Below, piece by piece: positions 13,722-16,448 of a stretch of 64,000 nucleotides of DNA. The notes under the pieces were generated by a model, which did no database searches, was not told where the DNA came from, and saw only the letters and a list, made by a program, of their open reading frames with translations. The stretch's first letter is position 1. Each line of letters starts with the position of its first letter. Origin of the DNA: an uncultured Gammaproteobacteria bacterium (GTDB lineage Bacteria > Patescibacteriota > Microgenomatia > Levybacterales > UBA12049); contig CAZCCG010000001.1 in the NCBI GenBank assembly GCA_964497535.1, positions 291,425 through 355,424 of the forward strand, read 5' to 3'. The position numbers and the translations under genes were made by a program.

Positions 13722-16448
13722 ATGACAAACCATGTGCAAAAAAAAGCCCTCATAGTAGCAGGCATATTATTTTTTTGTTTGCTGTTAATTGGGGCATTTA
13801 TTTTTTCAAAAAATAATTACCGACAATCTTTCCCACGAGTTGCCAAAACTCCTAAAATTGCTACCTATGTACCCGGTCAATTAGTTATCAAATATAAAGA
13901 GGGATATAATCTTTCCCAGATTTCAGATCCTGTTATTGTACAAAAAGTGGAAGCAGCATTTGCGCAAATTGGAGTGGTATCTCAGCAAAAAGTATTTCAG
14001 TCAAAAGACAAAAATCTATCAGGATATTACTTATTGAAGTTAAAACCGGGAGTCAGGGTAATACATGCACAAGAACAATTGGTAAAAATGGATATCATTG
14101 AAAATGCTACACCGAATTATAACTTGGATTTACAAGTTACTCCAAATGATCCGTTATATCAGGTTTACCAATGGAATTTGAAAAAAATCAATATGCCCGA
14201 TGCGTGGGGTGTAGCACATGCATCAAGCAAGGTTATCGTAGCAGTTTTGGATAGCGGTATTGACTATACCCAAGAAGATCTTCCTGGAAATATTATACGA
14301 GGAAATAATTATGCAACGAATACTTCCGATTCAACCGACACATTTGGTCATGGGACTTTTGTAGCAGGGATCATTGCGGCACTAACTAATAATAACAAAG
14401 GGGTGAGTAGTATTGCGGATGGTATACAGCTGATGGGTGTAAAAGTAACTGATGAAAATAAAGGAACAGCTTTGACTATGGTTCAGGGATTTGTAGATGC
14501 AGTAAATGGAGGTGCGAAGGTTATCAATTTAAGTATTGGTGCTACAAAGAGGTGCAGTGAAATTCCGATATTGGATGAAGCATTTTCTTATGCTGCAGCG
14601 CAAGGGGTTGTTATTGTTGCATCGGCTGGAAATGATAATCTGGATGCCGCAAATGTAATCCCCGCATCCTGTAACCATATTATTACTGTGGGGGGAACGA
14701 TGCAGGGAGATGAGAGAGCGCCTTTTTCAAACTGGGGAGGTCCAGTTGTTATTTCAGCCCCGGCAGTGGATATTATTTCTACAAATTCAAAGCAAAATAA
14801 ACTGGCAGCTGCATTTTCTTGTCCGGTTATATCCAGCAATTACAGCATTTGTCCCGGTACGTCATTTTCCGCTCCTCAAGTTTCAGCAGCAGCAGCGTTA
14901 TTATTATCGGTAAATCCTTCTTTAACGCCGGATGATATCAAAAACTGTTTGGTCCAGAGTGGGGATCCCATTACTACAGATAAACCAATTGGTACCCGAC
15001 TCAACGTTTATAAGGCTTTGCTTACTTGCGGCCATGTAACACCTGTTCCAAGTACAATAACTCCAACTCAAACAGCAACACTAAGCGGTACCATAATTCC
15101 CACCCCAAGCAGTACACTATCTGCCACTCCAGTGCCTACTGCACCTCCCGGTTGTTCTTATCAACCCATAAACTGTCCACAGATATGTAACACTACTCTC
15201 TGTCCAACTTGTCCTCCTGCTCAACTGATTTGTGACACTCCGACTCCGGTAGGAAGCAGTTCTGCGACCCCTACTCCTAGTATTACATCCTTGACTCCTA
15301 CTCCCACTTCAAGCAACTCAGCACGCTGTAGCGCCGCAAATGGAAATGTCGGGTCTTGTGATCAAATTGGAAGCTGTTCGTATTATTTCTGCTCGCAGCA
15401 GTGCTGGCCGCCCGGTACGCCGCTGGATGTTGCTTGTCCTCCTCGATCGGAAACATTTTGTAAGGCATTTGATAATAGCGTTAATGCCTGTGATAGCGCC
15501 GGAAATTGTTCGTACTATTTTTGCACCAGTTCCTGTTGGCCGACCGGGACGGATGTGGCGGGAGTATGTACTCATGAAATTGTGCATGGTACTGCATTTA
15601 TCGATTACAACAAAAACGGGATTCAGGACTCTACTGACCCCAGCTTTAGCGGGGGAGCGGTTGCATTAAGCGGTCAGGCTACTACTACACAAAAAACAGA
15701 CGCAGAAGGAAGCTATACTTTCTCCGAATTAAAAGCAGGTACCTATCGTGTACAGCTGCATATTGGAAATAAAACGATACAGTCATCTCCGGTTATTTTA
15801 GACCAAACTATATTTAATACTACGGTTAATTTGCCTATTGATCCTGTGATACTACAGACCACAGCAAATTCTGCGTTGAATGCTACTATTTCCATACCGA
15901 AAACGAAAATTGGCGTGAACGAACCGATTACCATTACTGCCCAGGCAAAAGGAAGGAATATCTCAAAAATCGGAATTTACCGAGCCCATCCCGGTTCTTA
16001 TACGGATTACCAATCAAATTGGAATTTAAACGTAATAGCGCAAAAAGATTGTAACAATCAAGATTCCTGTTCAGTTCCGGGAACATGGACACCCAAAGAA
16101 CCGGGAGATATCGGGACATGGTATGTAATTGTTCAAGCTGTAACATCAGACGGTATACAGTGTACCGGTAACCCATTGGTAAATGATGGTTTCATAGGAC
16201 CGGAACCGGGAGAAAAAATCTGGTACCGGTGCAATGATAAAAAAGATTCCGGAGAAATTGAAGTGCTTGCCCCTGCACAGAAAGCGGGAAAAGCATCAGT
16301 AACACCCTCAAAAAGTGGTCCAACTCCGACTCCAACACCTGTTTTATATAAGTGTGGTGAGGACCCAACATGCAGTAAACTACAAAAGAGTTTGAATCTT
16401 TGCCGTTTGAAATGTTGTCGAATAGATAATCTCAGTATTTGCAAGTAA
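13722..16448 (+). CDS. Membrane-anchored subtilisin-like serine protease (S8) with an I9-like propeptide and a large C-terminal extension containing duplicated Cys-rich modules and an SdrD-B/CnaB-like domain
   Basis: N-terminal TM anchor. Catalytic triad in D-H-S order: VLDSGIDY, HGTFVAGII, GTSFSAPQVSAAAALL. There is a T/P/S-rich linker. Two about 38-aa modules match C..N....CD..G.CSYYFC...CWP.GT. An SdrD-B-type signature is present (DYNKNGIQDSTDP...TDAEGSYTFSELKAGTYRV). The C-terminal tail is CGEDPTCSKLQKSLNLCRLKC. Confidence 0.9.
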   Translation: MTNHVQKKALIVAGILFFCLLLIGAFIFSKNNYRQSFPRVAKTPKIATYVPGQLVIKYKEGYNLSQISDPVIVQKVEAAFAQIGVVSQQKVFQSKDKNLSGYYLLKLKPGVRVIHAQEQLVKMDIIENATPNYNLDLQVTPNDPLYQVYQWNLKKINMPDAWGVAHASSKVIVAVLDSGIDYTQEDLPGNIIRGNNYATNTSDSTDTFGHGTFVAGIIAALTNNNKGVSSIADGIQLMGVKVTDENKGTALTMVQGFVDAVNGGAKVINLSIGATKRCSEIPILDEAFSYAAAQGVVIVASAGNDNLDAANVIPASCNHIITVGGTMQGDERAPFSNWGGPVVISAPAVDIISTNSKQNKLAAAFSCPVISSNYSICPGTSFSAPQVSAAAALLLSVNPSLTPDDIKNCLVQSGDPITTDKPIGTRLNVYKALLTCGHVTPVPSTITPTQTATLSGTIIPTPSSTLSATPVPTAPPGCSYQPINCPQICNTTLCPTCPPAQLICDTPTPVGSSSATPTPSITSLTPTPTSSNSARCSAANGNVGSCDQIGSCSYYFCSQQCWPPGTPLDVACPPRSETFCKAFDNSVNACDSAGNCSYYFCTSSCWPTGTDVAGVCTHEIVHGTAFIDYNKNGIQDSTDPSFSGGAVALSGQATTTQKTDAEGSYTFSELKAGTYRVQLHIGNKTIQSSPVILDQTIFNTTVNLPIDPVILQTTANSALNATISIPKTKIGVNEPITITAQAKGRNISKIGIYRAHPGSYTDYQSNWNLNVIAQKDCNNQDSCSVPGTWTPKEPGDIGTWYVIVQAVTSDGIQCTGNPLVNDGFIGPEPGEKIWYRCNDKKDSGEIEVLAPAQKAGKASVTPSKSGPTPTPTPVLYKCGEDPTCSKLQKSLNLCRLKCCRIDNLSICK

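Follow-up and report, generated by a model that had tools for sequence, protein, structure and literature searches.

What purpose does a cysteine-rich segment of some 26 residues serve at the very end of an exported protease? The question is raised by a subtilase gene, P0001, in a 64,000-nucleotide stretch of contig CAZCCG010000001.1, which we analyzed as a whole and call the window. The Patescibacteria, or candidate phyla radiation (CPR), are tiny, mostly uncultured, and often attached to host cells, and the organization of their surface is poorly known. The first-pass annotation of the locus had pointed out that the C terminus of the subtilase resembles that of a second protein of the window, P0002, and had proposed a common C-terminal knot or attachment motif on otherwise unrelated surface proteins. 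Our comparisons show, at the level of sequence, that this segment, here called the Cys-loop tail, is a conserved and always C-terminal module on diverse secreted proteins of a Levybacteria-type lineage; its predicted role is that of a surface-retention or docking tag.

Occurrence of the Cys-Loop Tail

The tail motif of P0001, CGEDPTCSKLQKSLNLCRLKC, spans nt 16353-16415 and ends 10 residues ahead of the stop; that of P0002, CEPDPQCTQGNKKIQICSLKC, spans nt 54327-54389 on the minus strand and is separated from the stop by three residues (IKR). A six-frame translation of the window matched C-x2-DP-x-C-x9-C-x-LKC at these two sites only, and the DNA form of the pattern, with its two matches, had an expectation of 0.00 in 100 dinucleotide shuffles, bearing out the resemblance between the two C termini. 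Among the other open reading frames (ORFs) of the window with at least 100 amino acids (aa), none carries a tail of this kind.

We scanned the strict DNA pattern across two public collections, one holding one genome per species (596 Gb) and the other consisting of Joint Genome Institute (JGI) metagenomes. The genome collection gave 12 matches, against about 9 expected by chance on our own estimate, and 10 of them were true C-terminal tails; the metagenomes gave 19 matches, among which were another 10 true tails. All 20 true tails are in frame, lie 1 to 4 residues from the stop, belong to long ORFs, and directly follow a Pro/Thr-rich linker. Their contigs have a G+C content (GC) of 33 to 42%, and those from the genome scan bear the name Candidatus Levybacteria or Patescibacteria or appear under uninformative names. 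The leftover matches are chance occurrences within short ORFs of unrelated, mostly GC-richer DNA. A check for C-terminal enrichment in relatives, which the first-pass annotation had suggested, thus came out positive in both collections (10/12 and 10/19). Variants of the tail were also found by a route independent of the motif: 6 of the 10 closest S8 homologues, retrieved through the S8 domain, carry one. The tail of P0158 is canonical, that of P0155 has x11 in place of x9, that of P0153 has a shifted Cys pattern, and those of P0154, P0157, and P0162 keep only the first and last Cys (C1 and C4). Two adjacent S8 genes of locus L038 both encode two-Cys tails, and a 289-aa protein of locus L044 ends in CEPDPQCAKGNNNLQLCRLICTPK. 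In all, we count at least 26 distinct tail-bearing proteins.

The consensus of the tail, about 26 residues in length, is [YF]-x-C-x2-DP-x-C-x6-(I/L)-Q-(I/L)-C-x-L-K-C-T-P-x-COOH. Across the alignment C1, C4, and the Leu two residues ahead of C4 are invariant, the Gln of I/L-Q-I/L is nearly so, and most members have an aromatic residue two positions ahead of C1. The most divergent member is the tail of P0001 itself, in which the I-Q pair is missing and an extension of 10 residues brings two extra Cys.

The tails matched nothing in Pfam or NCBIfam at E values up to 10, and in a profile search of the PDB nothing beyond weak partial matches came up (best E 0.056), which we put down to chance. The single match of the pattern in viral contigs was likewise due to chance, and looser regular expressions run on the neighboring genes of the fetched loci revealed no further copies. 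Word-index homologue searches with the C-terminal 385 aa and with a tail profile returned no matches; because the query itself is a cluster representative in the searched collection, we read this null as a limit of the index and not as absence. Our literature search found no description of the tail or of the six-Cys module described below.

One match of the tail pattern fell in a different kind of protein. Locus L020 (Ga0256362_1000005), on a contig of 49% GC, contains an ORF of more than 3200 aa that is open at the locus end and has no Pfam match; it consists of many repeats of the type C-x5-C-x-W-D-x6-7-C-x3-C, with Cys spacing as in the tail. It may have matched by chance or through a distant resemblance.

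Predicted Disulfide Pairing and Structure of the Tail

The tails not selected by the motif contain an even number of Cys in every case, and C2 and C3 have been lost jointly in P0154, P0157, P0162, and the second S8 protease of L038. The even counts and the joint loss suggest nested disulfides, C1–C4 and C2–C3. Given the last 45 aa of P0002 and seven homologues, AlphaFold predicted antiparallel strands at residues 20-24 and 40-44, with C1 (residue 22) facing C4 (residue 42) and predicted local distance difference test (pLDDT) scores of 76-81. From the pairing pattern and the model we infer that the tail is a beta-hairpin stapled by a C1–C4 disulfide, with an optional inner C2–C3 bond.

The last 40 aa of eight tail-bearing proteins have Kyte–Doolittle 15-residue maxima of -0.38 to 0.65, compared with 2.6-3.6 for N-terminal anchors; the P0001 tail, at 0.65, also contains no hydrophobic segment. 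As no transmembrane segment stands behind the motif, the tail does not look like a sortase-type signal.

Three other descriptions of the tail were rejected. A cystine knot needs at least three disulfides, and the four core Cys permit two at most, with several members having just two Cys. A zinc or other metal knuckle disagrees with the existence of two-Cys variants and with export of the protein. Lipidation of the CaaX type disagrees with the pairing of the last Cys with C1 and with the lack of an aliphatic a-a-X. Of the knot or attachment motif proposed for unrelated surface proteins, the recurrence on unrelated secreted proteins therefore holds and the term knot has to be dropped, while attachment is a matter of interpretation.

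Proteins That Carry the Tail

The carriers comprise several protein families. S8 proteases with the tail were found in the window, L007/L031, L009, and L038 and among the homologues (P0153-P0158 and P0162); M4 thermolysin-like proteases with an FTP propeptide in L011, L013, L017, and L033; and M64-like proteins with an HExxGH motif in L008, L012, L014, and L030, where an SdrD_B domain precedes the tail, and in L021, L026, and L036, where a cohesin-type domain does. The cohesin domains of L021 and L026 score above the Pfam cut-off and are followed directly by linker and tail, and that of L036 was assigned by similarity to these two. Cys-rich proteins with dockerin-like repeats (L015 and L025), the 225-aa P0002, and the 289-aa protein of L044 are also carriers. 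In carriers whose N terminus could be read, namely those of the window and of the full-length loci as well as the S8 homologues, it is hydrophobic in every case. What follows the last linker in related S8 proteases is the tail, a dockerin (P0165, P0161, and P0170), or a hydrophobic helix (P0156).

The dockerin-bearing P0165 lies inside a cluster of cohesin and dockerin proteins (L045, 5736-17800) in which there are no Cys tails; several proteins of this locus have in common the C terminus ...VADLNYDG[IV]VNLND[YF]SLL[IL].TLS.KY..E[DE]. Four tail loci, L006, L009, L011, and L017, come from contigs of metagenome-assembled genomes titled "uncultured Gammaproteobacteria," with 35-40% GC. Gene order and tail-bearing proteases in L009, L011, and L017 are as in the Levybacteria loci, and L006 has only the tail and a distant pair of genes, for a 110-aa protein and an AAA+ protein (see the next section), in common with them. 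The Gammaproteobacteria label of these four is probably wrong. Small ORFs precede some of the tail protease genes. In two S8 loci, L043 (2260-2769) and the JGI contig of P0158 (992-1537), a stand-alone protein of about 170-180 aa shows a weak fervidolysin-propeptide match; its gene may encode a propeptide made separately, as an inhibitor or in the manner of a chaperone. At the same position, ahead of the M4 genes in L013 (4368-4892) and L017 (6416-6940), lies an ORF of 175 aa (cluster c29) without a Pfam match.

A Conserved Slot in a Chaperone Cluster

Clustering of the ORFs in the fetched loci, together with gene tables, revealed a recurrent gene order: (HrcA-GrpE-DnaK), an unknown protein of about 820 aa, ClpB, the tail protease, (DnaJ or Ddl), a membrane protein of about 110 aa, a ClpB-like AAA+ protein of about 800 aa with a hydrophobic N terminus, NusA, and IF2. 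The loci with this slot are the window (3772-24465), L007-L009, L012-L014, L017, L021, L026, L036, L040, L043, and L044; a tail-bearing gene stands between ClpB and DnaJ/110-aa/membrane AAA+ in at least 15 loci from different genomes. The family of the slot protease varies by genome, being S8, M4, or M64-like, and the tail is retained. The arrangement with ClpB upstream is also seen in L040, L008, L013, and L044, and the pair of the 110-aa and AAA+ genes is kept in 11-12 loci. In the window, gaps of only 15, 5, and 1 nt separate ClpB, the subtilase, the 110-aa gene, and the AAA+ gene. The AAA+ protein there is 804 aa long, with a double AAA+ region and hydrophobic helices at its start in place of the normal soluble N-domain. 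Neither the 110-aa protein nor this hydrophobic N-terminal region has a Pfam match, and no CIRCE heat-shock operator was found in the window.

L044 shows a different arrangement. Its slot S8 protease, P0156, ends in a hydrophobic helix, and the next gene (11201-12070) encodes the membrane-anchored 289-aa tail protein. The C-terminal 170 aa of the latter, tail included, are 37% identical (E 1e-31) to P0001 aa ~720-898 (window 15879-16445), and the window subtilase accordingly looks like the fused form of two genes that lie side by side in L044. Tails also occur outside the slot, in P0002, L015, L025, and L038. Behind the association with the slot there could be a functional link, or no more than a gene order that was inherited. 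The exchange of protease families within one ClpB/DnaJ/AAA+ slot with the tail kept hints at a protease function that is conserved, extracytoplasmic, and connected with the heat-shock machinery.

What the Tail May Do

We assign a probability of roughly 45% to the reading that P0001 is an exported S8 subtilase of Levybacteria-like Patescibacteria whose stalk ends in a Cys-loop docking or retention tag. The protein would be inserted via its N-terminal hydrophobic anchor, and its I9-type propeptide would be removed by P0001 itself, as expected from other subtilases. In the S8 and M4 enzymes this cut would also sever the enzyme from the N-terminal anchor, the only membrane anchor that P0001 has. 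What extends from the catalytic domain would then be a stalk of Pro/Thr linkers, a Cys-rich stretch, two three-disulfide modules, an SdrD_B domain, and a further beta domain, with the tail at its end; on this flexible tether the tail would keep matured hydrolases and cohesin-type adaptors on a common envelope ligand. Two positional arguments favor such a role: the equivalent position of other S8 proteases holds dockerins or a hydrophobic helix, and on the cohesin proteins the tail sits where scaffoldins have their anchoring modules. In the cell-surface scaffoldins of cellulosomes, the anchoring module comes after the cohesin domains. The tail shares with dockerin and S-layer homology (SLH) modules the C-terminal place behind a linker, and it follows cohesins as in scaffoldins, but it is much smaller, has none of the Ca-binding D-x-D-x-D loops, and matches no Pfam family, the dockerin family PF00404 included. 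The D-region of type IV pilins, a disulfide loop of about 12-20 residues that lies a few residues from the C terminus and is used for binding, resembles the tail in design only, as the tail carriers have no prepilin leader and there is no relation in sequence.

Several points weigh against a docking or retention tag. As docking modules go, a hairpin of 26 residues is very small. The argument from substitution by dockerins or a transmembrane helix draws on few cases, and in L044 the tail has been relocated to a separate, following gene and not replaced. Most of the four-Cys tails were retrieved with a pattern that demands four Cys, DP, and LK, which makes the invariance of these residues there circular. 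Disulfide formation outside the cell is an assumption, the AlphaFold models are only moderately confident (mean pLDDT 69 and 73), and the P0001 tail, given its divergence, may not behave like the consensus.

The alternatives differ in what the tail would face. It could be a miniature targeting module directed at a substrate or host, in the manner of CBM1, and bind peptidoglycan or a host-surface glycan instead of the cell's own envelope. Fungal CBM1 modules, with about 30-36 residues and two disulfides, stand at a terminus of secreted hydrolases behind a Pro/Thr/Ser linker. The layout of catalytic domain, Pro/Thr linker, and tiny terminal disulfide module is the same here, most carriers are degradative enzymes, and one or two conserved Tyr lie just ahead of C1. 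The likeness is one of architecture only, however: Cys spacing and CPR origin differ, one or two conserved aromatics are few for a carbohydrate-binding face and no triple-aromatic face is evident, no Pfam carbohydrate-binding family matched at E values up to 10, and non-enzymatic cohesin-like and dockerin-like proteins bear the tail as well. We hold this explanation to be unlikely, though not negligible. A protective cap, in which the disulfide loop merely shields the linker end from the cell's own exoproteases and binds nothing, would suit carriers that are proteases or live among proteases, and Pro/Thr linkers and terminal disulfide loops can be expected to resist proteolysis. A cap would have no need of the non-Cys conservation across distant carriers (Y ahead of C1, DP, I/L-Q-I/L, and L-K ahead of C4), and we give it only a very slight chance.

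It is also quite improbable that the tail is a new kind of sorting signal, cleaved or covalently linked, for instance through the Cys at position -4, by a dedicated enzyme. The strict C-terminal place, with the last Cys mostly exactly 4 residues from the end (C-T-P-x), is reminiscent of a recognition box, and the window contains a sortase gene. Known C-terminal sorting signals combine a motif, a transmembrane helix, and an Arg-rich cluster, and some of them have an invariant Cys (bioRxiv 10.1101/2023.06.07.544157). Like the signatures of the LPXTG/sortase, PEP-CTERM, and MYXO-CTERM systems, the tail is short, lineage-restricted, placed at the extreme C terminus of unrelated exported proteins, and often preceded by a low-complexity linker. 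Unlike these tripartite signals, it has no hydrophobic segment (Kyte–Doolittle maximum at most 0.65), no basic or Arg-rich cluster (it ends in T-P-x or similar), and no LPXTG-type motif; C1 and C4 co-vary as disulfide partners, so that no thiol is left free; and no NCBIfam sorting-domain model matched at E values up to 10. We found no candidate enzyme, and none is known that would process such a tail. Docking of the protease to the neighboring 110-aa membrane protein or to the membrane N terminus of the AAA+ protein, giving a membrane proteostasis unit, would account for the 15 or more slot loci in which the protease family changes and the tail persists, for the short gaps in the window, and for L044, where the slot S8 protease has no tail and yet the next gene provides one. 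Gene order may, however, be simply inherited within one lineage, tails occur outside the slot, up to ~5 kb of sequence on the DnaJ side of the M4 loci contains no 110-aa/AAA+ pair, AAA+ domains are cytoplasmic whereas the tail is predicted to be outside, and no CIRCE operator was found in the window; the chances of this unit appear small.

Returning to retention or docking, a more far-reaching form of it, which we think rather unlikely, holds that the tail represents a new class of prokaryotic C-terminal address tag, without a transmembrane segment, by which degradative proteins displayed on the surface are captured by a dedicated receptor, maybe the 110-aa/membrane AAA+ complex. Such a receptor would link a protease outside the cytoplasm with an unfoldase inside it. 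With a tag of either form, the proteins displayed on the surface of the Levybacteria-type lineage could be listed from their sequences, and the tail peptide would be a defined bait for its receptor. The interest of the tail is raised by its lineage specificity, its clean C-terminal rule, and its association with the chaperone cluster. As families, the tail and the six-Cys module are both uncatalogued and both of a kind already familiar. One is a tag placed at the terminus after a linker, the other a small disulfide-bonded module of the stalk, and each would add one family to domain catalogues.

Six-Cys Modules in the Stalk

Ahead of the SdrD_B domain, P0001 contains the two consecutive six-Cys modules of about 38 aa that had been noted before. 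The two copies, here called Cys6 modules, have identical spacing (Table 1) and are 45% identical over ~39 aa (E 1e-13). About half of the DNA columns are identical between the copies, which suggests that the duplication is old. Their proposed novelty as a disulfide-rich repeat holds up: no match was found in Pfam or NCBIfam even at E values up to 10, and PDB sequences searched with a profile of the module gave nothing meaningful. There were zero matches to a module pattern in viral contigs and no tblastn match in plasmids. The structure prediction suggested for the modules yielded, in AlphaFold, a beta-hairpin between two short helices for each (mean pLDDT 73). The module and the tail are unrelated (hhalign E 0.58).

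An exhaustive search of representatives retrieved mostly multi-repeat SdrD_B proteins, and the only informative match was P0118 (E 3e-38 to the query), a 669-aa M23 peptidase with nine tandem copies of the module. Its repeat reads C-x8-C-x6-C-A-W-Y-x-C-A-D-E-C-H-P-x-G-T-P-x5-C, and the core common to its copies and those of the window is C-D...G-x-C-x-[WY]-Y-x-C-x3-C-[WH]-P-x-G-T...C. The contig of P0118 has 57% GC, which points to an unrelated organism. With nine tandem copies in an unrelated protein, the Cys6 module counts as a genuine family of extracellular modules, one that has yet to be curated. The modules are absent from the closest positional orthologue, P0154, which has the same gene neighborhood, and so they look like a lineage-specific insertion into the stalk. 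Their position and the tandem array of P0118 indicate that their most likely role is that of rigid spacers or stalk elements. Of known kinds, the PSI (plexin-semaphorin-integrin) module and similar small Cys-rich extracellular modules may be the closest.

The Subtilase Gene and Its Other Parts

P0001 itself is an ordinary subtilase of the S8 family. The Peptidase_S8 match (PF00082) reaches 166 bits against a cut-off of 21.8, and the catalytic Asp, His, and Ser follow in order as D177 (VLDSG), H210 (GHGT), and S381 (GTSFS). The propeptide match is close to its threshold (21.4 bits, cut-off 21; E 3e-4). The N-terminal anchor, with a Kyte–Doolittle 15-residue maximum of 3.20 within the first 45 aa, is also present in all close homologues. 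P0001 and P0154 are 39% identical across aa 10-452, the S8 half. The first-pass annotation had recognized an SdrD-B domain, and the PF17210 match is well above its cut-off (49.3 bits against 29.7; E 6e-13) and aligns with the SdrD_B region of P0154. S8 subtilases with C-terminal SdrD_B or CarboxypepD_reg extensions are a known kind, of which the catalytic half and the SdrD_B sandwich of P0001 are ordinary examples; P0001 differs from them by the Cys6 modules, the extra beta domain, and the tail. P0154 has neither the Cys6 modules nor the extra beta domain, for which a weak Big_7 match (E 0.02) was the sole family signal. The Cys-rich stretch at aa 478-504 differs in Cys spacing from the Cys6 modules and has no family match. 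NCBIfam returned only S8 relatives below threshold; among them, the type VII secretion system mycosin model (TIGR03921) scored 175 bits, short of the equivalog cut-off of 278.75, and a mycosin assignment was rejected in favor of generic S8 similarity. P0001 is a singleton at 90% clustering, and the identical protein is found on three Logan contigs and one NCBI contig of 393 kb. No tRNA gene was found in the window, the GC of which is 39%.

Table 1. Features of the subtilase gene, its flanks, and the P0002 operon in the window
Feature	Position (nt)	Strand	Basis or remark
Subtilase gene (P0001), 908 aa	13722..16448	+	ORF list; Pfam S8 E 1.4e-48
N-terminal hydrophobic signal-anchor, ~aa 9-29	13746..13808	+	Kyte–Doolittle
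I9/fervidolysin-type propeptide, aa 40-132	13839..14117	+	Pfam PF22148
S8 catalytic domain, aa 169-414	14226..14963	+	Pfam, catalytic motifs, P0154 alignment
Extra Cys-rich stretch with six Cys, aa 478-504	15153..15233	+	Cys positions
Cys6 module 1, aa 536-573	15327..15440	+	C-x9-C-x5-C-x4-C-x3-C-x10-C
Cys6 module 2, aa 580-618	15459..15575	+	C-x9-C-x5-C-x4-C-x3-C-x10-C
SdrD_B/prealbumin-like beta-sandwich	15576..15821	+	Pfam PF17210 match, aa 625-685
Cys-containing beta domain without family name, ~aa 720-860	15879..16301	+	Weak Big_7 match; with the tail, 37% identical to the 289-aa protein of L044
Pro/Thr-rich linker ahead of the tail	16302..16346	+	Direct sequence reading; similar linkers ahead of every tail found
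C-terminal Cys-loop tail, LYKCGEDPTCSKLQKSLNLCRLKC, with atypical extension CRIDNLSICK	16347..16445	+	Motif, family alignment
ClpB gene, upstream flank	10965..13706	+	Ends 15 nt ahead of the subtilase start
Downstream flank	16454..19199	+	~110-aa membrane protein (16454-16783), ClpB-like AAA+ (16785-19199)
P0002, 225-aa secreted tail protein	54315..54992	-	Motif 54327-54389; no Pfam family
Upstream genes of the P0002 operon	54994..58757	-	Second S8 protease and P0003
P0003, 734-aa Cys-rich protein with dockerin-like C terminus	54994-57198	-	Dockerin_1 E 0.0023, below cut-off
Second S8 protease, 520 aa	57195-58757	-	Operon start

The P0002 Operon and Other Genes of the Window

P0002 is encoded by the last gene of an operon that begins with a second S8 protease and continues with P0003. 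It had been called cohesin-like, which is only weakly indicated: P0002 matched no cohesin in Pfam at E values up to 10, and its N-domain gave a weak hhalign match to the cohesin region of L021/L026/L036 (E 0.014, probability 3%), although the alignment of motifs is plausible. P0002 aligns to the proteins with cohesin and tail through the tail alone. The association of tail and cohesin as such is real, since true cohesins precede the tail in L021 and L026. The operon could be a small cohesin–dockerin display system. From a reading of the sequence, P0003 appears to contain an internal duplication of about 100 aa. The second S8 protease ends (57195-57330, minus strand) in ...RSCTFTVSPNHTGINNPLSLTISNCSSGSNQPTGTQNNK, with a C-x21-C loop, an L-x-L-x-I-x-x-C stretch, and 14 further residues; this C terminus may be a degenerate tail, and a hidden Markov model of the tail did not detect one in it.

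Two further sets of genes recur between the window and the fetched loci. A sortase gene lies next to a gene for a protein of about 770 aa with a Baseplate_J-like region (window 40026-43086, minus strand), and the pair is kept in L038 (752-3783). Large proteins without Pfam matches that share the C-terminal motif G-F-T-[VA]-V-E-[WI]-G are represented by three paralogues in the window (19328-23171, minus strand, and 61184-63754, plus strand), and members of the same family are present in L008 (7255-7998) and L044 (15046-16389).

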